A DNA stretch of 46,817 nucleotides, taken from the NCBI GenBank assembly GCA_031270785.1, contig JAISWM010000113.1, positions 1 through 46,817 on the forward strand, given 5' to 3'. Shown piece after piece: positions 7,340-46,817 of the stretch; position 1 is the stretch's first letter, and each line of letters opens with the position of its first letter. The position numbers and the translations under genes are program-made. The stretch comes from Oscillospiraceae bacterium (GTDB taxonomy: Bacteria > Bacillota > Clostridia > Oscillospirales > Acutalibacteraceae). A model generated the notes under the pieces. That model did not search any database. It was not told where the DNA came from and saw nothing but the letters and a program-made list of their open reading frames with translations.

Positions 7340-7341
7340 AC

Positions 7342-7457
7342 TATAGCTGTTTCGTTTGAGAAGCGTCTGATTTTTATGACTTTCTCCCAGCCGACGGCTG
7401 GGAGAAAGTACACGGATAAATTTACTTTTGAGGACTGTTTTAAATCATAACAGCATA
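7342..7457 (+). mobile_element. MITE family A copy (right terminus degenerate)
   Basis: TATAGCTGTTTCGTTTGAGAAGCG...AAATCATAACAGCATA. Confidence 0.85.
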
Positions 7458-7499
7458 ATTTAACCCGCAACCTAAATCGCTACATAAGGAATAGATTTT

Positions 7500-8889: not shown

Positions 8890-9065
8890 TATAGCAAAGA
8901 CCATTTAAAAACGTGTTATTATTTACATTCCACCCCCGCCACAGGCGGGGGGGAAGCTACATACAAAGCCATTTAAAATGTGGCATTATTTACATGTTTT
9001 TTCTCCCGCCGAAAGCCAGGGAGAAAAAACAAAAATGTCACTGTTTTGAAAAGGTTTTTACTATA
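8890..9065 (+). mobile_element. Family D element, dimeric (two hairpin modules)
   Basis: TATAGCAAAGACCATTTAAAAACGTGTTATTATTTACAT, then hairpin 1, a second left arm, hairpin 2, and AACAAAAATGTCACTGTTTTGAAAAGGTTTTTACTATA. Termini are inverted (TATAGCAAAxACC / GGTTTTTACTATA). Confidence 0.7.
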
Positions 9066-9177
9066 GCTATTTTGTTTGAAAAGCATCTGATTTTATAACT
9101 TTCTCCCGGCCGTCGGCCGGGAGAAAGTACACGGATAAATTTACTTTTGAGAGCTGTTTTAAATCGTAACAGTTATA
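9062..9177 (+). mobile_element. MITE family A copy sharing TATA with the end of D
   Basis: TATAGCTATTTTGTTTGAAAAGCA...CGTAACAGTTATA. Confidence 0.85.
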
Positions 9178-9183
9178 TATCTC

Positions 9184-10036: not shown

Positions 10037-10153
10037 TATAGCTGTTACGATTTAAAACAGCCCTTAAAAGTAAATTTATCTGTGTACTTTCTCCCAGCCG
10101 TCGGCTGGGAGAAAGTCATAAAAATCAGACGCTTTTCAAACGTAACAGCTATA
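10037..10153 (-). mobile_element. MITE family A copy (reverse orientation)
   Basis: TATAGCTGTTACGATTTAAAACAG...TTTTCAAACGTAACAGCTATA. Confidence 0.9.
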
Positions 10154-10191: not shown

Positions 10192-10279
10192 GGTAGTGGT
10201 CCAAATTAATTGATAATATCTTTCCTCCCCGCCTGTGGCGGGGGGGAAGAATGGATTTCAACTATTTTATGGCGCGACC
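10192..10279 (+). mobile_element. MITE family B copy, full length, with 8-bp TSD
   Basis: GGTAGTGGTCCAAATTAATTGATAATATC...CAACTATTTTATGGCGCGACC, flanked by AATGATTC at 10184-10191 and 10280-10287. Confidence 0.92.
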
Positions 10280-11740: not shown

Positions 11741-11829
11741 GGTCGTGTCCCAAAATAGTTGAAATCCCTTCTTCTCCCCCGCCATAGGCGGGGGGGAAAA
11801 GATATTATCAACAAATTTGGCCCACAACC
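11741..11829 (-). mobile_element. MITE family B copy inserted in the tRNA-Pro leader, with 9-bp TSD
   Basis: GGTCGTGTCCCAAAATAGTTGAAATCC...ATCAACAAATTTGGCCCACAACC, flanked by GGCAATATA at 11732-11740 and 11830-11838. Confidence 0.9.
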
Positions 11830-14318: not shown

Positions 14319-14411
14319 GATAGTGGATCAAATTAATTGATAATATCTTTCTCCCCTGCCGATTCGCGGGGGGGGGGATAAGAAGGTATTTCAACTGTTT
14401 TGAGACACGAC
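14319..14411 (+). mobile_element. MITE family B copy in the 5-prime UTR of the ABC operon, with ~9-bp TSD
   Basis: GATAGTGGATCAAATTAATTGATAATATC...CAACTGTTTTGAGACACGAC, flanked by TCAGGAATT at 14310-14318 and 14412-14420. Confidence 0.88.
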
Positions 14412-14670: not shown

Positions 14671-14775
14671 TATAGCAAAAACCATTTTTAAAGCGTGGTA
14701 TTATTTGCGGTTCTTTCCCCCGCTTACGCGGGGGAAAGAACAAAAATGTCACTGTTTTAAAAAGTTTTTACTATA
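14671..14775 (+). mobile_element. Family D element
   Basis: TATAGCAAAAACCATTTTTAAAGCGTGGTATTATTTGCGG, then TTCTTTCCCCCGCTTACGCGGGGGAAAGAA, then CAAAAATGTCACTGTTTTAAAAAGTTTTTACTATA. Confidence 0.8.
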
Positions 14776-14835
14776 TCCGTTACTTTCCCCGCAGGCTCGC
14801 GGGGGAAGCAAATCAAACACATATCAGATTTTAAT
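14776..14835. repeat. Hairpin module plus ATCTGATATGT-type arm
   Basis: CTTTCCCCGCAGGCTCGCGGGGGAAG followed by CAAATCAAACACATATCAGATTTTAATTTTAGAAATA. The arm recurs in reverse at 36921-36945 and 36992-37012. Confidence 0.5.
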
Positions 14836-14949
14836 TTTAGAAATAGTACAAATTCATTTTCTAAATTTAGTATACTACAAAATTTTAAATTTGTCAAATT
14901 ATAAAAGTTTAAATTTAAAACTGCCTTCAAAGGTGGACTTTCCCAAATA

Positions 14950-18000: not shown

Positions 18001-21000
18001 TTACTTATTCTTACCGGATTTTCATACGTTATAAGCCCTGTTTCTTGGTCTTTTTCAACGCTCAGGTTTTTAGTTACTCCTATTAAAGTAACAGTTGCTT
18101 GGGATTTTCCGCCTACAGTATTTACTTTAACTTCAACATCCGCGCCGCCGACGGTTACTTTTAAATCAGACAGCGTAAACCCTTCATTGGCCTCAGCTAA
18201 AAATGAATAGTCAGAGCCGTGGTTTACTACGCCTTTTAACGTATCAGCGCTTTCAGACGGCAGTTTAATGTCGGAGCCATCCGTTTCACGAAATGTCACT
18301 TTGTTTTCCGTAAGGTCATCTTCCGCTGATAAAGTTATATCATACTTATTTATTTCTATCCCGTATATATTGATGATAGTATCCTTTGGTGTGGTTATAG
18401 TGTAATATCCGTCGTCGCCTTTATCCAGGTCGGTCGGAGTTAATGAGCTCGAAACTTTTAAAGGCGAATTAGTGTAGCCTTCTTTAAGTTCTATTTTGAA
18501 TTTTAGTTCTTTGTTGTAATAAGTTTGGGTTCCGTTTGTAATGTCTCTGTCCGCAGGATATGCATATATGTTTGCGTTAGTTATCCTTTTGCTTTCCTCG
18601 TTTTGGAATGTTACCGAGTAAAGGTTGATTGTTATTCCGCTTACGCTTATGTCTGAGTTATCCGTAATATTAGAAAGTGACACTGCGAACAGAGTATCCG
18701 TTGAAGTTTTATCGTCTTTAATAATGGCGGCGTTAGTTGCGGAAACAAGCGCGGAGCTTAAGTTATACCCCGTATTGGATTCGACTTGAAATGAATATTC
18801 ACCGCCGTGTTCTACTGATATTTTGTTTTCAACTATTTTAGGGTCCGTTATTTCAGCGCCGCTTTGGTAAGTGAATGTATAGCCTGTTATAACTGCATCG
18901 TTTTGGTCTGTTATGGATACGGTTTCGCCGATAATTGTTACTTTGTAATCTGTTATTTCGGTGCCGCTTTGGTCTGTTAATTTATAATTGGTTATTTCAG
19001 CGCCGCTTTGGTCTATTAATTTATAGTTTAGTATTTTTGCACCGCTTGCATTCCTAAATGTTATTCTGTGGTCCTCATTAAATATTATGTTGTATTTATT
19101 TACCGCAATATCGCTTATTGTAATTTTGAAGGTTTTGGTTACATTTAACTTATAAAATCCGTTCTCAACGTTTATTATTTCATCTTCTGACGCTGAGCCA
19201 TCGCTGTTTTTATCATAATATACTTTGATAATTGATTGAGTGTACGCATCGTCTAAAATGACTTTAAAGTTTAAATCTTCCCCGTGAGCCAAACGTACTC
19301 CTGAGGTTATATTTTTATTGTTTTCATTATATACTTTAAATCTTTGAGTACTGCTATTTTTATCTACAAATTCCACACGATAAAGTACTGATTTTACGCC
19401 TTCCACGTAGACCACAGTGTCATTTGTAACGCCGCCGATATTATATACCCATTGATTTGTTTTTGAAGTGTCTCTCGTAATAATTCCGTTACTTATGTAA
19501 ACTCTTAAATTTTCATCCAAGCTGTAACCGTTATCAGTAAGAGCGGTAATTTCTATTTGGTATATGTGCGCGTTTGAATTATTGCTCACGTCATTTAGGG
19601 TGTGTTCTATCGTTGGCGCGCTTACATCCGTGGGGAATTCCTGACTGTCGCCGTCCCACTCGGATATTACTTTATTATCATTTCTAAATGATATTCCTTC
19701 TCCGCTGAAGCCTATACTATATTTATTTACTTCAATACCTTCAACAATGATAGTAATCTGTTTTCCTGCGATGAGATTTCCGGGCAGCGTCCAGTATTCA
19801 TTTTGGCAGGCTAAATTTACCGGCTGCTCTTGACCGGGGTTTGCAATTTTAGCCTTAAGGGATATGGTACTTCGATTAAATTTATCATCCAAAGAAATTT
19901 TAAATTTATAATTATATCCGTGAATTGCGGTGCCGCACAGCTCAGCCGCGTCGCCGTCGCTTTTTAGTATATTACCGCTTTCTTCGCAGATTGACAGTAC
20001 CTTACTCAGAGCAATTTCTTCAATATCTTGGTTCTCGTCCCCTGACTTTACGCCGCCATGCTTGAAAATGATTTGGTATTCATTTCGCTTTGCACCTGAA
20101 ACCATAATTATTAAATTTTCTTTTACGGAATTTACGTTATACAAATTGTATGTACTGTTAGACTCTTTAAGAGTTAACATTAAACCCGTATTTGTTACTA
20201 CGTTTATGTTGCTCAAGTTATAACCGGGTTCAGGGTAAAGCCTAAATGAATAAGGCTTTCCGTGGGCTACTTTTTGTTCATCGGTAATTATTGATTCTTG
20301 GGCATTATCTTCTTTGAAAACAACAGATTGCCCTTCAAATTCCACAGAGTACCTTTTGGGGCCTAAAGCGTTCATTATAATTTTACTGTCCCCGGTTATT
20401 TTAGGGGTAGTATAAATATAATATTCTTTGTCTACAGATTCGGTTATTTTACTGAATTTTCCATTTTCATTTGCGTAATCTGCACTAGCAGGCCCAATAT
20501 ATACCTCAGCACCGGATATTTCAAATCCGTACTTTGCTTTTAAGGCAAATGAGTAAGTCTGCCCGTGAACAATGGTGAAGTCATTGTCCGTGTTCAGCAA
20601 GCCGTTTTTACCGCTATCATAAATTTCAAAACTTTTTAATGTTTCAGCGGATTGTTTCAAACTTAAGGAATACTTGTTCAGGCTTATATTATTAACTGAA
20701 ACTGAATTATTATCATAGATTTGTACTTGATATTTGTGTATTTCATCGCTCGAAAGATCTAATATTCTTCCTTGGCTTGGATTGCTAAACGAAATATTTA
20801 TCTCGGATTTATTGTATTTGGCGTTAAGTTCTATTTCAAAGGTAAATTGTTCACCGTATTTTAACAGTTTTTCTGCGGACGTAATGTCTTGATAGGCGTT
20901 TGGGGTTGTTTCTATCTGAACCCCTGCAGCTATGGTAACTGTTTTATTACCGGCGTCAAGGGCGTCTTCACCTAACACTATATTATATCCGACGTTTGGT

Positions 21001-24000
21001 GAAGGGTCTATTGTTATATTTCCATTTATTTTATTAAATTTAACAATTGCTTTGCAAGATGAAATGCTATATGAATCGTCAATATTCTTTTTGATGGTAC
21101 CATTTATTTCAACGGATGAAATGTCGCTGTTTGATATAGTATAATTGCCTGAATCCGTCGTAATGGTAGGAGGATTAATAATATTAAAATCGCCGGCCTG
21201 GGCAGTTGCTGTAAAAGCTGAAGTATCCGACGTGTTTTCGGGCAGTTCTGCGAAAGGTATACTAATTTCATTAGCAGATTCAAGTTTAATATTAGTAATT
21301 TTTTGCAATATTTTAAATTTTTGTTCGTTATTTGAATCTATGTCTTGTTGAAAAGAGAGTGCATATTGGTTTAACTGTATGTCTGCGTTTACGGTTACCT
21401 CTTCTTGTACATTTCTTATTTCGTATTGCCCCAGAGCTTGGTTGATGGTCACTATTTTGGATGATGTCTGAGCGCCTTTGCCGTCATTTCGGGAAATTGT
21501 AAAAGTAGCGCTTTTTATATCGTATCCCGAATCAACTGCGATATGAAATGCGAATGAACCTTCGTGTTTTATTGTTACTCCGTTGCCGCCTAATTCTGAG
21601 CCCGTGGCAGTATCATAGAATGCGGCGTGATTGGACGCAAACATCACGTCGTAGTTGTTTTCTTCGATATCCGATATAGTTACCGTCGTATCGGCTTGCA
21701 CGTCGCTTAATGTAAATACAATAGCGTTTTGGGGAAGCGGTTTGTTCGCCACTTTTGCTACAGGAGAGGATTGGCTGTATTTTCCAATCGGGGTAACTTT
21801 AAAGACCAGTGTTCCCCCTTGAATTACCGGCGTGGAAATGGAAGTTATGTTTACGCTGTCGGCCTCTATTTTTACCGCTTCAGTAATAATTATATTTTTA
21901 TCTTCCGTTTTAAATTGAACTAAACAGGCGTCTGCCTTTATTTTTTCCACTTTAATTACGGTGTTATCTTTAGTGACTCTCAGTTTATATACGTCTTCAA
22001 CGGGAGTTAAGTCTTGTAAGTCGGTTATTAACCCTGATTTTACCAATATTTTTTGCTTGGATGTGTTGTTTACCGCAAACTTGAACTCAGTGTTGTTGAT
22101 AACCAGTACGTAGCCTTGCCTATTACCTTGCTCATCTGGCTCCCCCTGCTGAATTTCTTGCCATATGGGTTCCCCTTCGCCGTCCACCTGTTCCCCTTCA
22201 AAGCCGCTTATACCTTCAAAAGTGATTTCATCATCAGGGGACATAAAATAAACTTTGCACAATGATTTCGTGGGGGCGAGATTATCGGTTAAGGTAAGCT
22301 CAACGTCGCCGGTAAAATCATATATTATTGTTTTATAGTTAATAATCTTGTCGTTTGACATCATGCAGGTGTTTTGTATTTTCGCTACTTCCGGCAAACT
22401 TTCAGGATTATTGGCAATAGTTAAAATGTTAAACAAGCGTACGCCTTCGGCATCAGTTTCAACCGGAAAACAATATCCGTCCGCAGCTTCTAATACCAAT
22501 GAAAAAGCTTCTTGAGTAAACACTATGCCCGACAATATTTCCCCATTTAAAGCGTTTTTGAATATTAGCCCATCTTTATTTGGTAGCGTGATTTTATAGC
22601 TTGCGGATTCAAAATTGTCAATACTGATTATCGTTACCTGACTTTTTTTTGCGGTTTTATAAAATTTTTGAATATTAGTATTGACAAATTCTGAATTTGG
22701 TTGCAGCTGCATGTTTAAATCATTGGGTACCGTTACGATGACATTTTCAATTGACAGCGTTCCTTTTTGCTCTATTGAAAATTGGTATTGAGTGTCCGGG
22801 TCAGTTATATTTATGCCCCACTGCGCACTGCTAGGATATACCGCCCAATCTTCACTATCAGTACTTGATCCTGAACCCGTATATTTAATGGTTACCGTAT
22901 CTTGCAAATTGCTCAGCTGTTTTGACCTGAAATACAAGTAATTGTCAGTTGAAGAAGACTTTAAAATTTCGCAGTCTTCCTTTACGTTTGACAGTTTAAA
23001 TACGTCCCCCGGAAGGCTTTTAAACATGCTTTTCATGTTTTGTTTTTCTATTGCCATATCTCCCGACAGCAATTCAAGGCTTAAACCGGAAAGGAGGTCT
23101 TTGCCGTCTTCACCTTTTTTCGATGTTATTAATATATATTTATGATCGGCACTGTCTTCTTTATCGAATTCAAGGGAATCTATATTTCCGGAAGTATTTT
23201 CGTCGCTGATATTTAAAATTTTTAAAGCGCCGTAGTCTACGTTCAAACCGGTAAAAGTTAAATCCGCTTGGCATGACTCAATTTCGTAGTAGTTGTTATT
23301 ATCTTCATTTCTCTTCATGGCGCCATGTATTCTAATAGTGCTGATATTGTTTATGCCAAACGGTTGGCTTTCTATACTTGAGCAGTAAGTGTTGCCTTGT
23401 TCTTCTGCTGTAAAGTCTAAGCTCGGGTTTTGCGTGCTTATTGAAAAAGCATTCGCTATATCATTTGGCGTATTGTATGTTAGTGAAAATGTCGGGTCTA
23501 CTGGCGACATGGGGTTAATGGTGATGTCGTTTTTTGTTTGCATTGAAACGTCTTTATTAAGTGCCGCGGTTATGCTTGGCTGGCCTGTTAACGGGTCGCC
23601 CAAGTAAGACGCGATAATTTCGGTGCTTGGAATCGTAAATGAAGTACCTCGGCCAATTTTTAATTTTAAATTTGTTGTTAAAGATATATTCGCGCCCGAG
23701 GCATTTACTGTTAATTCCTGCGCGTATAAAGTAGGGGTTCCGGTTTCTGTTTCAAAATCCTTTGCGGTCATGTACAGCGGGCTAAAAGTCAAATTCATTT
23801 GGCAGCTATTTGCGTCTATGGTGTACGTCGTCGTAGTTGTTGAACTTCCGTCGGTTTTTTCGTCTTTTTTAACTGTTCCGCTAATAGTCGCCAAAGATAT
23901 TTGATATTTTGATATTTCAAAATTTTGAACCGAATTTTCAAACGTTTCACCATGACCGGGGTGTATAGTTGAAGTTACACTTAAACTATTAGGCGTCATG

Positions 24001-26126
24001 TCTATTGATGCTAATGGTAATTCAGCGGAAAAATTTTTACTCTCAAAGTCGGTGCCTGTAACGTTTAAGAGTATAGCTTGATTTGTCGTAAACGTTACGT
24101 CGATAGTATTAGTACTACCGGGTGCCACTGTTGTTTTTACCGTAGATGATGTATGGGGGATATCGCTGTCTGAGAATATTAATTTTTTTGTAAACACAGA
24201 GTTTGCGGGTAGCTCTAATTGCGATATATTATTTTTTTCGATTTTAGCATGATTTACGCTACTATTTGAATTTCCTATAGGTATATTTATTTGCTTGCTT
24301 TCTTCGAAAACGCGCCTTTTGTAAGATACTGTAGTGCCTTTAAATGTAATGTCGGCTGTGCATGATTCAAGTGTACATTGGTTATCTTCATCAACGGCAA
24401 AAGTCCCTTTGATGATTATTTTTTCAATACAATTCGCCAGCTCAGTAAATGTTTGTGAGGCTATAGGGTCATAAATTACGTTGGGGTCTTCAGGTTCTTT
24501 AATTTCAAAATCCATTTTTAGGGAGTCGGTCGTGCGAAAAGTTTGACCTATGCTCTCTGAGTTAACAATATGTTGAAACTCAATTTTTTCGCTATTTATT
24601 TGAAAAGCCGGGTTAATAACAACGTCGGTCGTTAATGTTACAGAATTTGCAAACTTTCCTTCAATTTTGGGGTCTGAGGGTTGAGGATCTCCAGAAGGCT
24701 CTTCGGATTTTACTACAACATGGTTCGAACCTAGCATAAAAATTGAACCCGAAGGTATGGTAACAACAGGTTGAGTTACAACCAAATTTTGTGTGTCAAC
24801 CTGCTGCTCAGTGATTGTTTCGCCCATAAGCACAGCTGTATTAGACGGAGTGTATTCTAATTCTTGGACGTTAATATCTTCATTCCTGCCGAATATAGTT
24901 TTATAATTTTCTGATGTCTGCGCTTCACTGTTTTGTTCTATTTCCGCGATTATATTTAAAGTTATTGCGTAAGTTGCTCCCGGGGTGTTTCTGCGCAGTG
25001 ATAATCCTTTGCCATCTTCAGAGCGCACATCTACGTGCCAAACGTTTCCGTCAAACCTTGTTACATATTGATAATTTTGGTTTGAACTGTCATCGTTATC
25101 CGTAATATTTATTGCAAATTCACTGCTTTTCCAACGGTACCCATCTTGGGGATATATAGTAAAATTGAAATTGGAACCGTAATCTATCTGAATATCAGCC
25201 TGATTTTCAAACGCGTTTGCGTGAATATCTCCTATAACCGAATTTTCGGGCTTGGTTACAGTGATATTTGTTTTCCTCAGTTGTATATTTTGAAATGTTA
25301 TAGTCGTGTTAGCATTTATGCCTTCCGCTTTCCACAAATTTTCATTATCGCCCATTTCATTTATTGAAACCGCAGTTGATCCGGCACCTTTAACTACCGG
25401 AATTATTTTAAAACCTTCTTCAGCGTATTCGTCGTTTAATTCTATAGAAAACGTTAATATTCGGCCGTGAACTATTGATTGCCCGAAAGCGATTGTTACT
25501 TTTTGCAGGTCATTCATGGCTCCCGGGTCTTTGCCCACGAAAGCGCGGACTACCCCCGCGTCTTGAATATTTACGTTTTCAGCATTAAAGGTCACCACAT
25601 ACTCTGATTTTTCAATATTACTTATCCATATAACAGAGTTGGTTTTGTTTAATTTTATAGAATATATGTCGTTATTAGCCCTCAAAGGAGCATGATAATT
25701 ATATTGAGACTTATATTCCTCGTTTTCAATTTTTCCTGTATCGGCATCAACCCATTCATTTGGGATTAATCTTACTTCAATGCCGTCTTTTTTAAATTGG
25801 CCGTCAAGTGTTATTTTGAACGAGACGTAAGGTTCATCGGTAAAATTTTCCCCGATAATACTTTTGTTTGTGTTAATGTCAATTATGTCTAGCAGCTGAC
25901 TAGTATATAAATTTTTTACGTCGTCCACTTCGCTGCCATTGTCACTTCCGCCTATGCTTACGACAAAGGAGGTGTCCGGTGGTCCCTCATTTCCGGGCTC
26001 CGTTTCATTTGCAAAAAAATTAGTTATAAATTTTAAACTTACCGCAAATAAAAAAAATATTGCAACCGAAATTAAAATTATAGCGCTCCTTTTTTTAATA
26101 TTAACATTACGACTTCCTTTATTCAT
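15063..26126 (-). CDS. Giant (~3,690 aa) cell-surface repeat protein with N-terminal signal/anchor and C-terminal TM anchor
   Basis: The uninterrupted ORF runs to 26168; the ATG at 26126 (MNKGSRNVNIKKRSAIILISVAIFFLF) is preferred. At least ~18 repeats of ~85-90 aa begin (N/K)xYxVxF. The C-terminus has an S/G/N-rich stalk, a TM helix LILILVLGAIIVILVIIVI and a basic tail. No LPXTG motif. Confidence 0.85.
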   Translation of the reverse strand: MNKGSRNVNIKKRSAIILISVAIFFLFAVSLKFITNFFANETEPGNEGPPDTSFVVSIGGSDNGSEVDDVKNLYTSQLLDIIDINTNKSIIGENFTDEPYVSFKITLDGQFKKDGIEVRLIPNEWVDADTGKIENEEYKSQYNYHAPLRANNDIYSIKLNKTNSVIWISNIEKSEYVVTFNAENVNIQDAGVVRAFVGKDPGAMNDLQKVTIAFGQSIVHGRILTFSIELNDEYAEEGFKIIPVVKGAGSTAVSINEMGDNENLWKAEGINANTTITFQNIQLRKTNITVTKPENSVIGDIHANAFENQADIQIDYGSNFNFTIYPQDGYRWKSSEFAINITDNDDSSNQNYQYVTRFDGNVWHVDVRSEDGKGLSLRRNTPGATYAITLNIIAEIEQNSEAQTSENYKTIFGRNEDINVQELEYTPSNTAVLMGETITEQQVDTQNLVVTQPVVTIPSGSIFMLGSNHVVVKSEEPSGDPQPSDPKIEGKFANSVTLTTDVVINPAFQINSEKIEFQHIVNSESIGQTFRTTDSLKMDFEIKEPEDPNVIYDPIASQTFTELANCIEKIIIKGTFAVDEDNQCTLESCTADITFKGTTVSYKRRVFEESKQINIPIGNSNSSVNHAKIEKNNISQLELPANSVFTKKLIFSDSDIPHTSSTVKTTVAPGSTNTIDVTFTTNQAILLNVTGTDFESKNFSAELPLASIDMTPNSLSVTSTIHPGHGETFENSVQNFEISKYQISLATISGTVKKDEKTDGSSTTTTTYTIDANSCQMNLTFSPLYMTAKDFETETGTPTLYAQELTVNASGANISLTTNLKLKIGRGTSFTIPSTEIIASYLGDPLTGQPSITAALNKDVSMQTKNDITINPMSPVDPTFSLTYNTPNDIANAFSISTQNPSLDFTAEEQGNTYCSSIESQPFGINNISTIRIHGAMKRNEDNNNYYEIESCQADLTFTGLNVDYGALKILNISDENTSGNIDSLEFDKEDSADHKYILITSKKGEDGKDLLSGLSLELLSGDMAIEKQNMKSMFKSLPGDVFKLSNVKEDCEILKSSSTDNYLYFRSKQLSNLQDTVTIKYTGSGSSTDSEDWAVYPSSAQWGINITDPDTQYQFSIEQKGTLSIENVIVTVPNDLNMQLQPNSEFVNTNIQKFYKTAKKSQVTIISIDNFESASYKITLPNKDGLIFKNALNGEILSGIVFTQEAFSLVLEAADGYCFPVETDAEGVRLFNILTIANNPESLPEVAKIQNTCMMSNDKIINYKTIIYDFTGDVELTLTDNLAPTKSLCKVYFMSPDDEITFEGISGFEGEQVDGEGEPIWQEIQQGEPDEQGNRQGYVLVINNTEFKFAVNNTSKQKILVKSGLITDLQDLTPVEDVYKLRVTKDNTVIKVEKIKADACLVQFKTEDKNIIITEAVKIEADSVNITSISTPVIQGGTLVFKVTPIGKYSQSSPVAKVANKPLPQNAIVFTLSDVQADTTVTISDIEENNYDVMFASNHAAFYDTATGSELGGNGVTIKHEGSFAFHIAVDSGYDIKSATFTISRNDGKGAQTSSKIVTINQALGQYEIRNVQEEVTVNADIQLNQYALSFQQDIDSNNEQKFKILQKITNIKLESANEISIPFAELPENTSDTSAFTATAQAGDFNIINPPTITTDSGNYTISNSDISSVEINGTIKKNIDDSYSISSCKAIVKFNKINGNITIDPSPNVGYNIVLGEDALDAGNKTVTIAAGVQIETTPNAYQDITSAEKLLKYGEQFTFEIELNAKYNKSEINISFSNPSQGRILDLSSDEIHKYQVQIYDNNSVSVNNISLNKYSLSLKQSAETLKSFEIYDSGKNGLLNTDNDFTIVHGQTYSFALKAKYGFEISGAEVYIGPASADYANENGKFSKITESVDKEYYIYTTPKITGDSKIIMNALGPKRYSVEFEGQSVVFKEDNAQESIITDEQKVAHGKPYSFRLYPEPGYNLSNINVVTNTGLMLTLKESNSTYNLYNVNSVKENLIIMVSGAKRNEYQIIFKHGGVKSGDENQDIEEIALSKVLSICEESGNILKSDGDAAELCGTAIHGYNYKFKISLDDKFNRSTISLKAKIANPGQEQPVNLACQNEYWTLPGNLIAGKQITIIVEGIEVNKYSIGFSGEGISFRNDNKVISEWDGDSQEFPTDVSAPTIEHTLNDVSNNSNAHIYQIEITALTDNGYSLDENLRVYISNGIITRDTSKTNQWVYNIGGVTNDTVVYVEGVKSVLYRVEFVDKNSSTQRFKVYNENNKNITSGVRLAHGEDLNFKVILDDAYTQSIIKVYYDKNSDGSASEDEIINVENGFYKLNVTKTFKITISDIAVNKYNIIFNEDHRITFRNASGAKILNYKLIDQSGAEITNYKLTDQSGTEITDYKVTIIGETVSITDQNDAVITGYTFTYQSGAEITDPKIVENKISVEHGGEYSFQVESNTGYNLSSALVSATNAAIIKDDKTSTDTLFAVSLSNITDNSDISVSGITINLYSVTFQNEESKRITNANIYAYPADRDITNGTQTYYNKELKFKIELKEGYTNSPLKVSSSLTPTDLDKGDDGYYTITTPKDTIINIYGIEINKYDITLSAEDDLTENKVTFRETDGSDIKLPSESADTLKGVVNHGSDYSFLAEANEGFTLSDLKVTVGGADVEVKVNTVGGKSQATVTLIGVTKNLSVEKDQETGLITYENPVRISNAKKEKYTVTFGGQEMNNVTILDKDTLKDITRSGREVLYGGDLTIIASPNTGYDQSVSGWTFVAGTAIEKESTNTWKIKNVTSDTIVTLQGLQLNTYTMTFKGDDVEFKDKVTGNDISSQNLSITHGRYFTFKVTPKEGYDLENVTISTTAGRLTEENRSAKEAVYTLSEIDSPPTVEVKVLKSNINVKLVENEGIIYREPFGSSVLIGIQTRPYGDTFSFSVATEYGYDFKTLEVKAEGTVLIPSSINEEEEYYRYEIPSVKEDTDITATVNKKKYKIELPTSESTEGLKFYENNRQITHETNIIVEYGGKFQFTTELDDRHNQSSVTVKANDETVNFINGYYTIADVSANMAITVEGIEINRYKVNLSESIGATYEDASVEMSNISGVYIIQYGSEISFSISPKGGYELSQMVVVCREDNGVAISLEPKDGRYTIKNVASNKTVSVQNAKEVQYKVSFEPTYGVRYKNDQGLVVTNPVYVNHGNNFEFQVSIYDECDDSVPVVKTTSGTVGVQKLSAGKYILSNVTEDLTIQVLNVSKNKYTVTLTKITGITYKDASGKTLENEAQKVEYNDDFKFHVYVQPAYNDSAITVMLGKDNIATENGVYIIRGIKEDKTVTVTGITENEETLLINTIDKLSDKVESSADVDAIVQATKRYNQLSDDKKALISNYSKLQSLQQLAGEYSHVTNDLKVSGVPWNIKLVAVTLSANTDACSRIYNKLNSEFILSLYDIYLVDMLTGQKYELPEGEKVIVTIPTPDLKYFKDPLVVHEISSTGKIEYLILNINGDTSSFEMTSFSSAGVIAKKSLNSGNSSLFNAIGDEINNIKDIIANMVNGGGHGQSSNMSNTSGSSSASGSGNDSNDSWDDSVQSDKSDEIFEESTDVTSNSENSSSGGSSSGSNNSGGTGSNNKNNGFIGQFVQDGSGVMQGSAIKLILILVLGAIIVILVIIVIKRLRPKNKNSKTASGKTEPKVPPKNE

Positions 26127-26188
26127 AATTGCACCGCCCTTATTGATATAAATGACAATTTTTGTCACTGCATTTATTTTTATTTGGT

Positions 26189-27073: not shown

Positions 27074-27704
27074 TATAGCTGATACACTTTAAAAAAATAA
27101 ATTTGCTCATGCGCCCTCTCCCAGCCGCTGGCGGGTGGGAGAGCAGTAAAAAATTAGATATTTTTCAAGAGCATTAGCTATAGCTATTACACTTAAAAAA
27201 AATAAATTTGCTCATGCGGTCTCTCCCCGCCGCAGGCGGGTGGGAGAGCAGCAAAAAATTAGATATTTTTCAAGGGCGTTAGCTATAAGCTTATGCACTT
27301 AAAAAAAATAAATTTGCTCATGCGGTCTCTCCCCGCCGCAGGCGGGGAAAGAGCAGTAAAAAATCAGATATTTTTCAAGGACGTTAGCTATAGCTGATGC
27401 ACTTAAAAAAAATAAATTTGATCATGCGGTCTCTCCCCGCCGCTGGCGGGGGGGGAGTAGTAAAAAATTAGATATTTTTCAAGGACGTTAGCTATAGCTG
27501 ATGCACTTAAAAAAAATAAATTTGCTTATGCTGTCTCTCCCCGCCGCTGGCGGGGGGGGGAGTAGTAAAAAATTAGATATTTTTCAAAGGCGTTAGCTAT
27601 AGCTGATACACTTTAAAAAATAAGTTTGCTCATGCGGTCTCTCCCCGCCGCAGGCGGGGAAAGAGCAGTAAAAAATTAGATATTTTTCAAGGGCGTTAGC
27701 TATA
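27074..27704 (+). repeat. Head-to-tail tandem array of six family E units (103-105 bp each)
   Basis: Units start at 27074, 27179, 27284, 27389, 27493 and 27598. Each unit reads TATAGCTGATGCACTTAAAAAAAATAAATTTGCTCATGCGGTCTCTCCCCGCCGCAGGCGGGGxxAGAGCAGTAAAAAATTAGATATTTTTCAAGGxCGTTAGC. Junctions share AGCTATAGCT and there are no spacers. Confidence 0.92.
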
Positions 27705-27858: not shown

Positions 27859-28063
27859 TAAAGCTGTTTCACTTGAAAAATGGTCATGTCTAAAAATAGT
27901 TGAAATTTCTTCTTTCACCCCCCGCCAGCTCGCGGGGAGAAAGATATTATCAACTAATTTGAACCACTACCTGAAAAATGCATGCTCATTTGTGCATTCT
28001 TTCCCTGGGGGCCTGCGGGGAAAGAGTTACAGGAGTTTATATTTTTTAAGTTAAACCACTATA
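27859..28063 (+). mobile_element. Family I element (~107 bp) interrupted by a family B copy
   Basis: TAAAGCTGTTTCACTTGAAAAAT, then the B insertion, then GCATGCTCATTTGTGCATTCTTTCCCTGGGGGCCTGCGGGGAAAGAGTTACAGGAGTTTATATTTTTTAAGTTAAACCACTATA. An uninterrupted paralog lies at 43846-43954. Confidence 0.8.
27882..27971 (-). mobile_element. MITE family B copy nested in I, with 8-bp TSD
   Basis: GGTCATGTCTAAAAATAGTTGAAATTTC...ATCAACTAATTTGAACCACTACC, flanked by TGAAAAAT at 27874-27881 and 27972-27979. Confidence 0.92.
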
Positions 28064-33170: not shown

Positions 33171-33254
33171 GCATAAAAAAATATTTTTTTGAAATTTAAT
33201 TTGAATTAAGTTTAATTCCTCGAGGCTTGTCTCGTATATATAGCCAAAATCATT

Positions 33255-33371
33255 TATAGCTGTTTCGTTTGAAAAGCGTCTGATTTTTATAACTTTTTCT
33301 TAGCCGACGGCGGGGAGAAAGTACACGGATAAATTTACTTTCGAGGACTGTTTTAAATCGTAACAGCTATA
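33255..33371 (+). mobile_element. MITE family A copy
   Basis: TATAGCTGTTTCGTTTGAAAAGCG...CGTAACAGCTATA. Confidence 0.9.
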
Positions 33372-33458
33372 GAAACATGGTATCATTTGCGGTTTTCCCC
33401 GCCGACTCGCGGGGGGAAAGCGTAAATAATACCACGTTTTTAAATGATTTTTGTTATA
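33372..33458. repeat. Family D-type palindromic module (D left arm on both sides of the hairpin)
   Basis: ATGGTATCATTTGCGG, then TTTTCCCCGCCGACTCGCGGGGGGAAAG, then CGTAAATAATACCACGTTTTTAAATGATTTTTGTTATA. Confidence 0.65.
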
Positions 33459-33482: not shown

Positions 33483-33583
33483 TATAGCTGCTGCGCTTAA
33501 AAAACGTCTAATTTTTTATCGTACTCTCCCCCCCGCCGGTGGCGGGGTAAAAGAAGAAATTTTAACTATTTTGAGACATAATC
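33483..33583 (+). repeat. Chimeric element: E-like left arm joined to B right arm at the hairpin
   Basis: TATAGCTGCTGCGCTTAAAAAACGTCTAATTTTTTATCGTACTCTCCCCCCCGCCGGTGGCGGGGTAAAAGAAGAAATTTTAACTATTTTGAGACATAATC. Confidence 0.7.
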
Positions 33584-33604
33584 AGTTTTTGAAGTATTTT
33601 TAAT

Positions 33605-33747
33605 AGACCTGTCCGTAAATCTCACAGAGCGCAGACTATCGAAAAATGCATCACTTAAAAAATGGCTTTGCATCAAAATCTCCTTGGAGTATCTTCATAC
33701 GCCGTCGTCGATTTTGATTGCAATCTGTAAAATTTACGGACAGGTCT
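33605..33747 (+). mobile_element. MITE family C, intact 143-bp copy
   Basis: 16-17 bp inverted termini AGACCTGTCCGTAAATC...AATTTACGGACAGGTCT, flanked by AAT on both sides. Confidence 0.88.
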
Positions 33748-33782
33748 AATCTAAATTTGGTTTATTAAAATCGAAAAATTCA

Positions 33783-37962: not shown

Positions 37963-37972
37963 ATTGTTTATT

Positions 37973-38117
37973 AGAACTGTCCGTAAATTTTACAGATTGC
38001 AATCAAAATCGACGACAGCGTATGAAGATACTTCCCGGGAGATTTTGATGCAAAGCCATTTTTTAAGTGATGCATTTTTTCGATAGTTTGCGCTCTGTGA
38101 AGTTTACGGACAGGTCT
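37973..38117 (-). mobile_element. MITE family C, intact copy in reverse orientation
   Basis: AGAACTGTCCGTAAATTTTACAGATTGCAATCAAAATCGACGAC...GTGAAGTTTACGGACAGGTCT. Confidence 0.88.
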
Positions 38118-38177
38118 AATAGGGACTTTAAAATTCGAGGCTTTAATTATGTTCAGCATATATATACTCTCAAAAAG

Positions 38178-39586: not shown

Positions 39587-39703
39587 TATAGCTGTTACGA
39601 TTTAAAATAGCCCTCAAAAGTAAATTTATCCGTGTACTTTCTCCCAGCAGACGGCTGGGAGAAAGTTATAAAAATCAGACGCTTTTCAAACGGAACAGCT
39701 ATA
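39587..39703 (-). mobile_element. MITE family A copy (reverse)
   Basis: TATAGCTGTTACGATTTAAAATAG...CAAACGGAACAGCTATA. Confidence 0.9.
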
Positions 39704-39710
39704 GTATAAA

Positions 39711-39810
39711 TATAGCCAAAACCATTTAAAAACGCGATATTATTTATGCTCCCCCCCGCCACCGGCGGGGGGGAAACAAAAATGTCACTGTTTCAAAAGG
39801 TTTTTACTAT
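39711..39810 (+). mobile_element. Family D element
   Basis: TATAGCCAAAACCATTTAAAAACGCGATATTATTTATGCTCCCCCCCGCCACCGGCGGGGGGGAAACAAAAATGTCACTGTTTCAAAAGGTTTTTACTAT. Confidence 0.8.
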
Positions 39811-39986: not shown

Positions 39987-40078
39987 GGCCATGTTTCAAA
40001 ATAATTGAAATCCTTTCTTTATTCCCCCCGCCATGGGCGGGGGGAAAAGAATATTATCAATTAATTTGGGCCACCACC
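39987..40078 (-). mobile_element. MITE family B copy with 8-9 bp TSD
   Basis: GGCCATGTTTCAAAATAATTGAAATCC...ATCAATTAATTTGGGCCACCACC, flanked by AAAAAAATT at 39978-39986 and 40079-40087. Confidence 0.85.
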
Positions 40079-40488: not shown

Positions 40489-41058
40489 ATGTGCAATACC
40501 TGGGCAAATCTTGAACGAGACTGCTTAACATGCAAAAAATGCTCGCTTTGTGAAACAAGGACTAACGTTGTTTTTGGAGAAGGCAATATTAATTCCAAAG
40601 TTATGCTTATAGGAGAAGGGCCAGGAAAAGAGGAAGATCTTCAAGGCAGGCCTTTTGTCGGCCGATCAGGAAAATTGCTTGATAAAATGCTTGAAAAAGT
40701 TGGCCTTAGCAGACAAAAAAACATATATATAGCCAATATAGTAAAATGCAGACCTCCTCAAAACAGAGATCCTTTGCCCGGTGAACAAAATGAATGCATG
40801 AATTGGTTAAGAAGCCAATTTACAATAATTAATCCCAAAATAATCGTAGCGCTTGGAAGAATAGCCGCTGCGCGCGTGATAAAACCAGATTTAAAAATAA
40901 CAAAGGAACACGGGATCATCTATAAGAAAAAAGATATTTTTATGATGGCTGTATTTCATCCGGCGGCATTATTAAGGGATCAGTCAAAAATAAGTTTTGC
41001 AGAACAAGATTTTGCTAAACTTAAGCACTTAATTGATAAAAATATATCGTATAGCTAA
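40489..41058 (+). CDS. Uracil-DNA glycosylase, family 4
   Basis: N-terminal Cys cluster CLTCKKCSLC, GEGPGKEEDLQGRPFVGRSGKLL and HPAALLR motifs. The last two codons plus the stop (TATAGCTAA) coincide with an E-type element terminus. Confidence 0.9.
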   Translation: MCNTWANLERDCLTCKKCSLCETRTNVVFGEGNINSKVMLIGEGPGKEEDLQGRPFVGRSGKLLDKMLEKVGLSRQKNIYIANIVKCRPPQNRDPLPGEQNECMNWLRSQFTIINPKIIVALGRIAAARVIKPDLKITKEHGIIYKKKDIFMMAVFHPAALLRDQSKISFAEQDFAKLKHLIDKNISYS

Positions 41059-41107: not shown

Positions 41108-41309
41108 GGCCATGTCTCAAAATATAGCTGTTATGATTTAAAACAGTCCTCAAAAGTAAATTTATCCGTGTACTTTCTCCCAGCCGTCGGCTGGGAGAAA
41201 GTTATAGAAATTAGACGCTTTTCAAACGAAACAGCTATAGTTGAAATTCCTTCTTCCCCCCCGCCTACGGCGGGGGGGAAGATATTATCAATTAATTTGG
41301 ACCACTACC
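41108..41309 (-). mobile_element. MITE family B copy split by a family A insertion at its internal TA
   Basis: GGCCATGTCTCAAAATA (41108-41124), then A, then TAGTTGAAATTCCTTCTTCCCCCCCGCCTACGGCGGGGGGGAAGATATTATCAATTAATTTGGACCACTACC (41238-41309). Confidence 0.88.
41123..41239 (-). mobile_element. MITE family A copy nested in B with a TA duplication
   Basis: TA at 41123-41124 and 41238-41239 flanks the core TAGCTGTTATG...AACAGCTA. The B consensus has a single TA at this position (CAAAATAGTTG). Confidence 0.9.
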
Positions 41310-43106: not shown

Positions 43107-43228
43107 CGAGTTAGTGTTAATGATATTGAGGGTACACCTGTTCCCATCTCGAACACAGAAGTTAAGCTCAATGATGCTGAAAATACTGGGCTGGCAGCAG
43201 CCTTGGAAAATAGGGAAATGCTAACTCT
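43107..43228 (+). rRNA. rrf: 5S ribosomal RNA (not linked to 16S/23S in this window)
   Basis: Universal loop C/helix III segment CACCTGTTCCCATCTCGAACACAGAAGTTAAGC. Helix I is GAGTTAGT/GCTAACTC, helix II ATTGAG/CTCAAT, helix IV GGGCTG-GCAG-CAGCCT. About 120 nt. Confidence 0.85.
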
Positions 43229-43272: not shown

Positions 43273-43380
43273 GGTGGTGATCCAAATTAATTGATAATAG
43301 ACCTGTCCGTAAATCTCACAGAGCGCAAACTGTCGAAAAATGTATCACTTAAAAAATGGCTTTGCATCAAAATCTCCTTG
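43273..43380 (+). repeat. B left end (43273-43298) followed by the left part of C (43299-43380)
   Basis: GGTGGTGATCCAAATTAATTGATAAT then AGACCTGTCCGTAAATCTCACAGAGCGCAAACTGTCG...CATCAAAATCTCCTTG. This is the same B/C junction as at 3534/3535. Confidence 0.75.
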
Positions 43381-43473
43381 TGTCTCAAAATAATTTAAAT
43401 TTCTTCTTCCCCCCCGCCTTCGGGGAAAAAAGAAACGTAAATAATACCACGTTTCTAAATGATTTTAGCTATA
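43381..43473. repeat. Chimeric element: B right arm (reverse) joined to a D left arm at a half hairpin
   Basis: TGTCTCAAAATAATTTAAATTTCTTCTTCCCCCCCGCCTTCGG, then GGAAAAAAGAAACGTAAATAATACCACGTTTCTAAATGATTTTAGCTATA. Confidence 0.65.
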
Positions 43474-43639
43474 TCTACAATTTTTGAAAGTTCTATATAT
43501 CTTTTAACAAAACAATCTATTGACACTTAACACATGTGAGTAATAAAATATGCTGTGTGGGAATAAAAAATTTATCTTAAATTTTGAATATAATATCCGA
43601 GATCCACGAAATTTAAAAGTTTTAAAACCATGATGTTTT

Positions 43640-43729
43640 GGTAGTGGTTCAAATTGATGGATAATATCTTCCCCCCCCGCCTATGGCGGGGGGGAAAAGA
43701 AGGGATTTCAACTATTTTGACCCACAACC
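43640..43729 (+). mobile_element. MITE family B copy, full length, with 8-bp TSD
   Basis: GGTAGTGGTTCAAATTGATGGATAATATC...CAACTATTTTGACCCACAACC, flanked by GATGTTTT at 43632-43639 and 43730-43737. Confidence 0.92.
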
Positions 43730-43845: not shown

Positions 43846-43954
43846 TATAGTGGTTTAACTTAAAAAGTATAAACTCTTGTAGCACTTTCCCCCGCGAGCC
43901 TGCCGGGGGAAGCGGACGTAAATGAGTGTGCTTTTTTTCAGTGAAACAGCTGTA
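43846..43954 (-). mobile_element. Family I element, uninterrupted 109-bp copy
   Basis: TATAGTGGTTTAACTTAAAAAGTATAAACTCTTGTAGCACTTTCCCCCGCGAGCCTGCCGGGGGAAGCGGACGTAAATGAGTGTGCTTTTTTTCAGTGAAACAGCTGTA. It serves as the empty-site paralog of 27859-28063. Confidence 0.8.
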
Positions 43955-45721: not shown

Positions 45722-45769
45722 AATATGGTTGCGGCCCAAATATTCTTTTTTCCCCCCGCCTTTTTTTGG

Positions 45770-45863
45770 GGTTGTGGGTCAAATTAATTGATAATATCTC
45801 TTCCCCCCCCCGCCGAAGGCGGGGGGAGAAAGAAAGAATTTAAACTTATTTTGAGACATAACC
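45770..45863 (+). mobile_element. MITE family B copy nested in another B, with 8-bp TSD
   Basis: GGTTGTGGGTCAAATTAATTGATAATATC...AAACTTATTTTGAGACATAACC, flanked by TTTTTTGG at 45762-45769 and 45864-45871. Confidence 0.88.
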
Positions 45864-45896
45864 TTTTTTGGGGGGAAAAAAGAAAAAATTTTCAAC

Positions 45897-46013
45897 TATA
45901 GCTGTTTTGTTTGAAAAGCGTCTGATTTCTATAACTTTCTCCCAGCCGACGGCTGGGAGAAAGTACACGAATAAATTTACTTTTGAGAACTGTTTTAAAT
46001 CGTAACAGCTATA
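45897..46013 (+). mobile_element. MITE family A copy nested in B with a TA duplication
   Basis: TTTTCAAC-TA, then TAGCTGTTTTG...AACAGCTA, then TA-TTTTGGGACACGCCCC. The B consensus reads CAACTATTTTG with one TA. Confidence 0.9.
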
Positions 46014-46027
46014 TTTTGGGACACGCC

Positions 46028-46067
46028 CCGATTTTGATTGCAATCTGTAAAGTTTACGGACGGGTCT
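46028..46067 (+). repeat. Family C right-end fragment
   Basis: CGATTTTGATTGCAATCTGTAAAGTTTACGGACGGGTCT. Confidence 0.75.
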
Positions 46068-46088
46068 ATTCTTCCCCCGCCTTTTTGG

Positions 46089-46177
46089 GGTTGTGGGCCA
46101 AATTAATTGATAATATCCCTCCCCCGCCTTCGGCGGGGGGGAGAAAGAAAGAATTTAAACTATTTTGAGACACGACC
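46089..46177 (+). mobile_element. MITE family B copy (second unit of a ~330-bp composite duplication)
   Basis: GGTTGTGGGCCAAATTAATTGATAATATCCCTCCCCCGCCTTCGGCGGGGGGG...AAACTATTTTGAGACACGACC. Confidence 0.85.
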
Positions 46178-46210
46178 TTTTTTTGGGGGAAAAAAGAAAA
46201 AATTTTCAGC

Positions 46211-46327
46211 TATAGCTGTTTTGTTTGAAAAGCGTCTGATTTTTATAACTTTCTCCCAACCGACGGCCGGGAGAAAGTACACGGATAAATTTACTTTTGA
46301 GGACTGTTTTAAATCGTAACAGCTATA
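46211..46327 (+). mobile_element. MITE family A copy
   Basis: TATAGCTGTTTTGTTTGAAAAGCG...CGTAACAGCTATA. Confidence 0.9.
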
Positions 46328-46408: not shown

Positions 46409-46546
46409 TTGAAGCATTTTGTGACTATTGCCGAAGGCAATCAGCAAAAAGACATTAAAAAAATAGGTTGCGGAGAATGCCAGGCGTCTTGCCAGTCGGC
46501 ATGTAAAACTTCTTGCACAGTAGCAAACCAAAAATGCGAAAAATAG
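46409..46546 (+). CDS. scfA: SCIFF ranthipeptide precursor (six cysteines in forty-five residues)
   Basis: Not in the ORF track because it is under 60 aa. A TTG start lies ~8 nt after AAGGAGG. The 45 codons read (M)KHFVTIAEGNQQKDIKKIGCGECQASCQSACKTSCTVANQKCEK, matching the conserved GCGECQxSCQSACKTSCTVxNQxCE core. Confidence 0.9.
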   Translation: MKHFVTIAEGNQQKDIKKIGCGECQASCQSACKTSCTVANQKCEK

Positions 46547-46635
46547 GTCATGTCTCAAAATAATTGAAATCCCTTCTTTCACCCCCGTGTTTCAGTGGTG
46601 GGAGAAGATATTATCAATTAATTTGGACCACAACC
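46546..46635 (-). mobile_element. MITE family B copy starting at the last base of the SCIFF stop codon
   Basis: GGTCATGTCTCAAAATAATTGAAATCCC...ATCAATTAATTTGGACCACAACC. Confidence 0.88.
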
Positions 46636-46641
46636 GAAAAA

Positions 46642-46730
46642 GGTTATGTTTCAAAATAATTGAAACTTTTTCTTTTTCACCCCGCCGTCGGCGGGGTGAA
46701 AGATATTATCAGCTAATTTGACCCACAACC
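46642..46730 (-). mobile_element. MITE family B copy (second of three in tandem)
   Basis: GGTTATGTTTCAAAATAATTGAAACTTTTTCTTTTTCACCCCGCCGTCGGCGGGGTGAAAGATATTATCAGCTAATTTGACCCACAACC. Confidence 0.88.
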
Positions 46731-46737
46731 GAAAAAT

Positions 46738-46817
46738 GGTTATGCCTCAAAATAATTGAAATCCCTTCTTTCACCCCCGCGTTCTAGTGGTGGGGGAAGA
46801 TATTATCAACTAATTTG
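46738..46817 (-). mobile_element. MITE family B copy (third in tandem, runs off the window)
   Basis: GGTTATGCCTCAAAATAATTGAAATCCCTTCTTTCACCCCCGCGTTCTAGTGGTGGGGGAAGATATTATCAACTAATTTG. Confidence 0.85.

Follow-up and report, generated by a model that had tools for sequence, protein, structure and literature searches.

The contig and its repeats

The window analysed here is a whole contig of 46,817 bp from an uncultured gut-type member of the Clostridia, deposited at NCBI as the MAG (metagenome-assembled genome) "Oscillospiraceae bacterium" with the locus tag LBR79. Its gene content is of the housekeeping kind (mutS, mutL, miaA, def, pth, a murA/aroA-type gene, ppk and rny), to which a uracil-DNA glycosylase-family (UDG) gene, one tRNA and one 5S rRNA are to be added. 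The RNase Y encoded in the window is 66-70% identical to Oscillospirales proteins and 90-91% identical to those of the nearest relatives.

When the window was compared with itself, repeats came to 16% of its length (7.6 kb, distributed over about 40 blocks that with few exceptions lie between genes); the families A, B, D, E, F and I among them are considered here (Table 1). An Rfam search of the window returned the tRNA and the 5S rRNA only, and no repeat corresponded to a known RNA family. At 41108-41309 a repeat of family B is interrupted by an element of family A and reads CTCAAAA-TA-(113-bp core)-TA-GTTGAAAT. The contig begins within a copy of A and terminates within a copy of B, and the fragmentation of the assembly is therefore attributed to the repeats. 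The repeats also give rise to many false short open reading frames in the public annotation, and they contribute stop codons to real genes.

Table 1. Repeats, insertions and an empty site in the window (positions are those of the 46,817-bp contig)
Feature	Positions	Strand	Remarks
A copy at contig start	1-117	+	right flank TA-GTTGATAATATC, the other B arm with the equivalent TA; left flank off the contig
A copy	3857-3973	+	core 3859-3971; AATTTAGAAA-TA-(A)-TA-GTTTAAAC
A copy adjoining the end of a family F element	7342-7458	+	degenerate right terminus
D element with A in its terminal TA	8890-9179	+	D 8890-9063; A core 9064-9175, 112 nt
A copy abutting the end of a family F element	10037-10153	-	GGACAGC-TA
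Complete D copy	14671-14775	+	TATAGCAAAAACC...GTTTTTACTATA; TA on both sides
Empty-site paralogue of the insertion at 3859	14825-14854	+	one TA; CAGATTTTAATTTTAGAAA-TA-GTACAAATT
E tandem array	27074-27704	+	six units of 103-106 nt; TAGCTGAT...GTTAGCTA; cores abut directly
I element split by B	27859-28063	+	TA-AAGCTGTTTCAC...TTAAACCACTA-TA; B 27882-27971 with 8-bp duplication TGAAAAAT
D element split by A	33239-33458	+	A core 33257-33369; CATT-TA-(A)-TA-GAAAC
A copy, TA on both sides	39587-39703	-	7 nt from the D copy 39711-39809
Left part of interrupted B	41108-41124	+	GGCCATGTCTCAAAA + TA; of the two target TAs, the left one is 41123-41124
A core in B	41125-41237	-	113 nt, TAGCTG...CAGCTA
Right TA and remaining B	41238-41309	+	TA 41238-41239, then GTTGAAATTCC...hairpin...GGACCACTACC
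Uninterrupted I copy	43846-43954	-	TATAGTGGTTTAAC terminus
Second A in B	45897-46013	+	core 45899-46011; degenerate half-B, CAAC-TA...TA-TTTTGGGACAC
A copy in 314-bp segmental duplicate of the 45.8-kb block	46211-46327	+	left flank B, TTTTCAGC-TA; right flank unrelated

The A and B repeats are absent from L001, the nearest relative examined (RNase Y about 91% identical; contig with 31% GC). From this absence it is concluded that the repeat expansion is recent and lineage-specific; for the same reason L001 yielded no orthologous empty sites. Patterns for the A interior and for the B arm had no match in the JGI metagenomes, a pattern scan of viral contigs had none, and blastn of plasmids with the A-in-B sequence and with family I found no match. 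A pattern for the A inverted repeats hit at least 29 loci in genome contigs, but it was too permissive, those listed all being chance or coding matches of 21-27 nt.

Family A and its target sites

Family A has a core of 113 nt, TAGCTG...CAGCTA, and is present in ten copies in the 46.8-kb window. Eight cores have exactly this length, the one at 9064 measures 112 nt, and the copy at 7344 has a degenerate right end. The copies are 87-96% identical to one another, TA flanks every intact end, and beyond the TA the outer flanks differ from copy to copy without any relation. The terminus reads TA followed by TAGCTGTTTC (also written TA followed by TAGCTGTTTCG). The terminal inverted repeats are imperfect, about 26-31 nt long, with arms that are 76-81% complementary; a GC-rich 14-bp hairpin lies in the centre of the core, and the element as a whole folds into a long hairpin (DNA fold -22.3 kcal/mol, z = -6.3). 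Shorter than 300 bp, non-coding and multicopy, with inverted repeats and a target duplication visible in filled and empty sites, family A has the properties of a bacterial MITE.

Five insertions in the window are testable: two in B arms, one in a D arm, one with a paralogous empty site and one into a terminal TA. The TA is duplicated in all five, and excision in silico of the core together with one TA restored the host repeat in every case; because the outer flanks are unrelated and removal of core and TA restores the host, the pattern is not due to chance. In the D arm at 33257 the filled site reads TATAGCCAAAATCATT-TA-(A)-TA-GAAACATGG, and the uninterrupted D arms read CATTTA(A/G)AAAC or, extended, ...CATTTA(A/G)AAACGTGG, with a single TA. 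The insertion at 3859 has its empty counterpart at 14825-14854, also given as AATTTTAGAAA-TA-GTACAAAT. At 9062-9179, where D and A adjoin, the junction is ...TTTTTAC-TA followed by TAGC, and A is followed by TA-TA-TCTC, three TAs in all; this is just what an entry of A into the terminal TA of D would produce, the target TA being doubled and the TA that flanked D being retained. A 4-bp duplication of TATA was ruled out, since the host repeats carry only one TA.

The preliminary description had been confined, as far as interrupted targets are concerned, to the two A insertions in B. Sequences and coordinates of both (41108-41309 and 45890-46027) agree with what had been described, and the TA duplication postulated from them extends to the D arm at 33257, to the pair 3859 and 14825-14854, and to the D terminus at 9064.

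Two independent insertions into family B

The second case, at 45897-46013, lies in a half-B, whose other strand has the sequence CAAC-TA-(113-nt core)-TA-TTTTGGG. The B arm site is CAAAA-TA-GTTGA, in the version of the other arm CAAAT-TA-RTTGA. When the uninterrupted B-type arm motif [CT]NAAA[AT]-TA-[AG]TT[GT]A was counted across the window, one TA was found in 34 of 34 matches (33 in B repeats and one chance match inside a gene) and TATA in none of the 34, in keeping with the single TA previously assigned to the B consensus.

It could be argued that the two cases do not represent two insertions but one composite B-A-B variant, propagated either whole or through segmental duplication, of which the extra TA is simply part. 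The two A copies do agree in the TA they occupy and in their relative orientation, both carry a rare C variant (TTTCTAT), and the 45.8-kb block is truly duplicated segmentally at 46.1 kb. Against this stands the divergence of the surroundings. As to the INDEPENDENCE of the two cases, identity between the A copies at 41125 and 45899 amounts to 95.6%, whereas for the surrounding B sequence it is no more than about 52-57% over 45 nt (by our own count about 73% when the B-derived part alone is compared); the outer flanks are unrelated and one of the hosts is a half-B. On other contigs A lies at the same TA turned the other way, and it also occurs within the other B arm, within D arms and in DNA that is not repeated. 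The composite reading is thus largely refuted and has very little probability left. The two A insertions in B are independent events, and since the B flanks are diverged, the outer flanks unrelated, one host only a half-B and other cases of opposite orientation, the TA of the B arm is considered a hot spot that was hit repeatedly.

A copies on other contigs of the genome

An open reading frame, YSCYDLKQSSKVNLSVYFLPAVGWEKVIKIRRFSNETAI, occupies one strand of A, and by way of it the element could be followed on other contigs of the LBR79 genome at the level of peptides. About 30 short false open reading frames running through A (YSCYDLKQ...ETAI) are annotated on other contigs of the MAG, and 8 more A-derived ones in the other frame. 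In nearly all of them TAT is the first and ATA the last codon of the A-derived part, from which it follows that the copies are flanked by TA. The flanks recovered in this way are back-translated and hence degenerate; they match B, D and I of the window read in the same frames.

The TA duplication holds in every testable one of these peptide-level insertions, at least nine in number. In P0126 (GHVSK before, VEFSFF after the element) and P0128, A occupies the same TA of B in the orientation seen in the window; in P0141 (KDFN before, FLDMT after), P0146 and P0153 it occupies the same TA in the opposite orientation, and in P0124 (N before, VDNIFPPPP after) it lies within the other B arm. A abuts a D terminus in P0135 and P0147 (flanks ending in GFY and SFY), an I terminus in P0130 and P0136 (KLNH) and an A terminus in P0144 (RNS). 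In each of these five cases a TAY codon comes next and supplies a further TA (TA-TA), in agreement with the D-A junction at 9062-9179.

Families D, E, I and F

The TATAG terminus attributed to D, E and I was confirmed in all three. In family D, 13 nt of left flank are common to two of the five copies; the other three differ, and because these do not share the left flank, TATAG is a true terminus and not part of a longer conserved unit, the alternative that had been raised before. The terminus of family I is TA followed by TAGTGGTTTAA. D, E and I have TA flanks and varied outer flanks, with no filled/empty pair in the window; among the TATAG families the duplication was seen directly for A alone. 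Judged from their ends, D, E and I are very probably MITEs of the same type as A.

These elements had also been described as abutting each other through a shared TATA, at 9062-9065 and at every junction of the E array, and this had been explained by repeated insertions, each at the terminal TA of an element already in place. The shared TATA is present at 9062-9065 and at four of the five internal junctions of the array; the fifth reads TATAA. Insertion into a terminal TA holds for D and A at 9062-9179 and for the five abutting peptide cases. It does not hold for the E array, in which serial TA-duplicating insertion would need 19 TAs (three per added unit) and 14 are present. The E units are about 90-97% alike in a mosaic pattern, there is no spacer between the cores, and each end of the array has two TAs. 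Since the cores abut and the ends carry two TAs only, the array looks like the product of tandem amplification of a unit, which would be the simpler reading.

Family F (TAGACCTGTCCG...CGGACAGGTCTA) was considered as a further candidate TA duplicator; the junctions of B with F better fit a 5-bp duplication of TAATA.

Family B and the common hairpin

Family B is about 90 nt long, GGTCATGTC...CCACTACC. Perfect direct duplications of 8 or 9 bp flank it in seven of the eleven copies examined (GGCAATATA, GTCGATTT, AATGATTC, TGAAAAAT, AAAAAAATT, TCAGGAATT and GATGTTTT), one of these copies being located inside a family I element. As B duplicates 8-9 bp and A duplicates TA, two chemistries are present, acting, as had been proposed, on elements that have a C-rich/G-rich central hairpin in common. 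A strong central GC hairpin is found in every family.

Such a hairpin calls to mind single-stranded transfer by an HUH/Y1 transposase (IS200/IS605 or the REP-associated RAYT type), which would place the element beside a short target motif without duplication, one TA belonging to the element. By sequence alone, a 113-bp core with TA duplication and a 115-bp element without duplication read identically, and the target does resemble the element end (..AC-TA versus ..AGC-TA). IS200/IS605 and REP-type elements lack terminal inverted repeats and symmetric TA ends, and they insert in one specific orientation on the 3' side of a fixed motif. Family A, in contrast, has long terminal inverted repeats with a symmetric TA at both ends, it used the same TA in both orientations, and its hairpin is central rather than subterminal. 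Moreover, B carries a hairpin of this type and duplicates 8-9 bp, so the hairpin does not dictate the chemistry. Because of the inverted repeats and the insertion in both orientations, HUH/Y1 hairpin elements of the IS200/IS605 or REP type were rejected, and we regard such a transfer as highly improbable.

Two repeats in the window are chimeric. The one at 33483-33583 has an E-type left arm and a B-type right arm, the one at 43375-43474 a B-type left arm and a D-type right arm. These inter-family chimeras suggest recombination at the hairpin.

Two A copies have lost the host flank on one side, the copy at 46213 and P0125, and the segmental duplicate at 46.1 kb stops at the right end of the former; this suggests adjacent deletions or rearrangements beside these copies. 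The chimeras and the one-sided losses could be taken to mean that there was no recent transposition at all and that the mosaics arose when repeat families recombined, or templates were switched between them, at TA-rich microhomology and at the hairpins they share. Such a process does not yield an exact 113-bp insert plus exactly one extra TA in five different host sequences, nor does it leave a host repeat that is precisely restored upon removal of the insert, and we give it almost no credence as the origin of the A insertions.

Target preference, termini and the search for a transposase

In the reconstructed targets of A the TA is preceded by C or followed by G in 10 of 10 cases (nine of them independent, since two form a duplicate pair), as compared with 24% of the 3,971 TAs in the window (binomial p ~6e-7). 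The extended motifs AC-TA or TA-GT were found in 7 of 10 targets versus 7% of the background. According to the title of Tenzen & Ohtsubo (1991), cited in PMC2170065, IS630 inserts at TA within CTAG; the bias of A matches a half-site only of this sequence.

Among the elements to which A can be compared in this respect is ISY100 from Synechocystis, an autonomous member of the IS630/Tc1-mariner group with its own transposase (PMC2170065). In vitro, cleavage by the enzyme falls precisely on the 3' ends but lies 2 nt within the element at the 5' ends, the element inserts nearly always into TA with duplication of the TA, and rejoining of the donor leaves a TATATA junction (PMC2170065). The mapped end of ISY100 reads TA followed by TAGTAGTTTC, in lower-case notation ta followed by TAGTAGTTTCAAAT, and ...gcta followed by TAGTAGTTTCAAATAAAGCTG (PMC2170065). 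The A and I termini each agree with this end in 9 of 11 positions by our own count, a likeness that extends over about 11 nt and would arise by chance with a probability of about 0.05-0.1 by our own estimate, 8 arm types having been tested; common to all is TA followed by TAG..GTTTC. With this layout of the ISY100 end it is no longer odd that the A element itself starts with TA.

No transposase gene was found in the 46.8-kb window with Pfam and NCBIfam. Among the matches of the peptide search there were no long proteins containing A-derived peptides, and the search for a transposase with a C-terminus derived from the open forward frame of A matched only short false open reading frames.

The TA-duplicating MITEs could also be moved by a DDE transposase other than IS630, such as IS30 or the ISL2, IS427 and IS1031 groups of IS5, or by a Correia-type enzyme. 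DDE (Asp-Asp-Glu) transposases are the common cut-and-paste type. IS30 and the three IS5 groups mentioned generate 2-3 bp duplications, and IS30 targets its own inverted repeats and forms dimers with abutted ends. The frequent insertion of A at resident TATAG termini and the head-to-tail E array are reminiscent of such targeting and such dimers, and no transposase was matched in the window or in the peptide searches. Furthermore, the I terminus agrees in 13 of 14 positions with that of the Correia elements, whose mobilising enzyme has not been determined (PMC2649163). On the other hand, every testable case shows a duplication of 2 bp, and it is TA each time, which among the prokaryotic families is diagnostic of IS630 (PMC2170065); the C-TA/TA-G bias agrees with CTAG, and the ISY100 end has the layout TA followed by TAG..GTTTC. 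We therefore consider a DDE enzyme outside the IS630 family unlikely. The attribution to IS630/Tc1-mariner-type transposition, made originally from the TA duplication, gains support from the target bias and from the layout of the ISY100 end.

Proposed mechanism

We propose, with reasonable though not full confidence, that A is a non-autonomous MITE moved in trans by an IS630/Tc1-mariner-type transposase with C-TA/TA-G as target, and that B is moved by a different enzyme. A transposase provided in trans from elsewhere in the genome would excise the A element and link its two 3' ends in staggered fashion to a TA dinucleotide, preferably one with C before or G after it. Repair of the 2-nt gaps would then leave a TA on either side of A. 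At 41108-41309 the insertion would have gone into the only TA of the left inverted repeat of a resident B MITE, itself mobilised by a different enzyme with 8-9 bp duplications. That the element moves by cut-and-paste, and that its enzyme belongs to the IS630 family, is what we infer from the TA duplications, the target bias and the termini.

The families are new ones within a well-known kind of MITE, TA-duplicating and most likely of the IS630 type. The mechanism itself is textbook; the density and the nesting of the elements in this genome are unusually high. Several undescribed MITE families have been mobile in the genome of an uncultured member of the Oscillospiraceae, and their nested insertions serve as internal empty-site controls. 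Only two leads go beyond the ordinary, the ISY100- and Correia-like termini and the hairpin found across two transposase classes. As to the latter, it is conceivable, though doubtful, that the GC hairpin, which the inter-family chimeras carry as well, is a module that is exchanged between, or selected in, otherwise unrelated MITEs of two transposase classes.

Similar elements described before

A class of bacterial MITEs that have inverted repeats, end in TA and duplicate their target has been described; Correia/NEMIS, ERIC and RUP belong to it (PMC2229807). RUP (repeat unit of pneumococcus) from Streptococcus pneumoniae is a non-coding MITE of about 107 bp that ends in inverted repeats. Its target is TA, frequently one located in another mobile element, and its mobilisation is attributed to the IS630-Spn1 transposase acting in trans (PMC2229807). 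Judged by analogy, the pair RUP/IS630-Spn1 is the closest analogue of family A: both RUP and A are Firmicute MITEs of similar size with inverted repeats, TA targets and nesting in mobile elements. In RUP the partner insertion sequence is known through the similarity of the inverted repeats, whereas for the families of the window no partner was found. The sequences are also unrelated, and in the window several TATAG-ended families coexist and have a GC hairpin.

Stowaway-type MITEs of eukaryotes likewise duplicate TA and are mobilised by mariner-like transposases (PMC2229807 for the MITE parallel). Their insertions nested in other repeats allow the reconstruction of empty sites, as do those described here. 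They differ in that their hosts are eukaryotic rather than prokaryotic, and there is no sequence relationship.

Correia elements (CREE/NEMIS) were first described in the 1980s. In Neisseria these MITEs measure about 105-155 bp, have ends of the form TATAG[CT] and duplicate TA (PMC2649163); their 26-nt inverted repeat reads TATAG[CT]GGATTAA(CAAAAA/ATTTAAA)... The elements of the window resemble them in the duplication of the TA target and in the TATAG terminus, the right end of I (TATAGTGGTTTAAC) being identical in 13 of 14 positions to the Correia terminus (TATAGTGGATTAAC) over the first 14 nt only. The host phylum and the internal sequence are different, and a search of the window for the full Correia inverted repeat of 26-28 nt, with up to 3 mismatches, gave 0 matches. 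Because the full repeat is absent, the elements of the window are not Correia elements.

ISY100 has in common with A and I the TA duplication followed by a start with TAG..GTTTC; it differs from them in being an autonomous insertion sequence, and the likeness is limited to the terminal 11 nt or so. It is conceivable, though we are doubtful, that the TATAG elements of the window, the IS630 ends of the ISY100 type and the Correia elements form one cross-phylum group recognised by related IS630-type transposases. If this were true, the LBR79 genome with its recently active MITEs could reveal the class of enzyme that moves Correia-like elements. The likeness of the termini to those of ISY100 and Correia is thus a modest lead on the mobilisation of Correia-type repeats.

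Family B elements and their target duplications

Perfect target duplications of 8-9 bp flank family B MITEs (about 90 nt) at seven sites in the window, which points to the activity of a second class of transposase. A third MITE family, family F, is about 145 nt long and has the ends TAGACCTGTCCGTAAAT...ATTTACGGACAGGTCTA. The two families are nested in one another: one internal site of family F, GTCGATTT, is repeatedly occupied by B elements, and one site of family B, GATAATA|, is repeatedly occupied by family F. At these B::F junctions a 5-bp TAATA duplication appears to fit better than a TA duplication.

Coordinates of repeats and genes on the contig
Feature	Position	Strand	Remarks
B MITEs with 8-9 bp duplication	11741-11829, 7208-7298, 10192-10279, 27882-27971, 39987-40078, 14319-14411, 43640-43729
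B copies in tandem	46546-46817		three copies, GAAAAA(T) between copies
Family F copies	33604-33748, 37972-38118
Interrupted family F copies	3534-3777, 7097-7340, 43297-
Chimera, E-type arm + hairpin + B-type arm	33483-33583
Chimera, B-type arm + hairpin + D-type arm	43375-43474
D copy	8890-9063		arm and hairpin duplicated
Tandem segmental duplication	45745-46013 vs 46059-46327		~270 bp, 89-91% identity, spacing 314 bp
Uracil-DNA glycosylase-family ORF, end	41050-41058		...TAT AGC TAA within E-like TATAGCTAA terminus
HlyD-family ORF, end	8728-8732		stop is the TAG of the TATAGC terminus
SCIFF ranthipeptide precursor	46409-46546	+	45-aa ORF MKHFVTIAEGNQQKDIKKIGCGECQASCQSACKTSCTVANQKCEK, six cysteines; TIGR03973, E = 1e-20
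3,701-aa ORF	15063-26168	-	no Pfam domains
5S rRNA gene, solitary	43110-43226	+

Repeats, genes and rearrangement

Two real genes, encoding a uracil-DNA glycosylase-family and an HlyD-family protein, take their stop codons from repeat termini. In the LBR79 metagenome-assembled genome, some 40 entries annotated as "hypothetical proteins" (P0124-P0160; 47-119 amino acids) are simply translated A and B repeats. They are annotation artefacts, which nevertheless help to locate repeat copies.

The right boundary of the segmental duplication is the exact right end of an element of family A, the TA-flanked 113-bp core. This coincidence suggests a transposon-associated rearrangement or adjacent deletion.

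The SCIFF ORF is followed by the three tandem B repeats and then by the contig end; no radical-SAM maturase gene lies in between. The region of the 3,701-aa ORF shows a strong AT skew (-0.19 to -0.24) over about 10 kb. Some 800 bp of MITE clusters are found upstream of the 5S rRNA gene, and a 23S rRNA gene is absent from the 46,817-bp contig.

Apparently exchangeable arms and possible common ancestry

Chimeric elements combine arms of different families, and one D copy has its arm and hairpin duplicated; the arms look like exchangeable modules surrounding a common GC hairpin. The second inverted repeat of family B, GGTAGTGGTCCAAATTAATTG (14319-14332, and B arms generally), is similar to family I's TATAG-type end, TATAGTGGTTTAAC, as well as to the inverted repeat of the Correia elements of Neisseria, except for the first two bases, which are GG in B rather than TA. 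From this similarity of their ends the two MITE classes may share a common ancestry, despite their different duplications.
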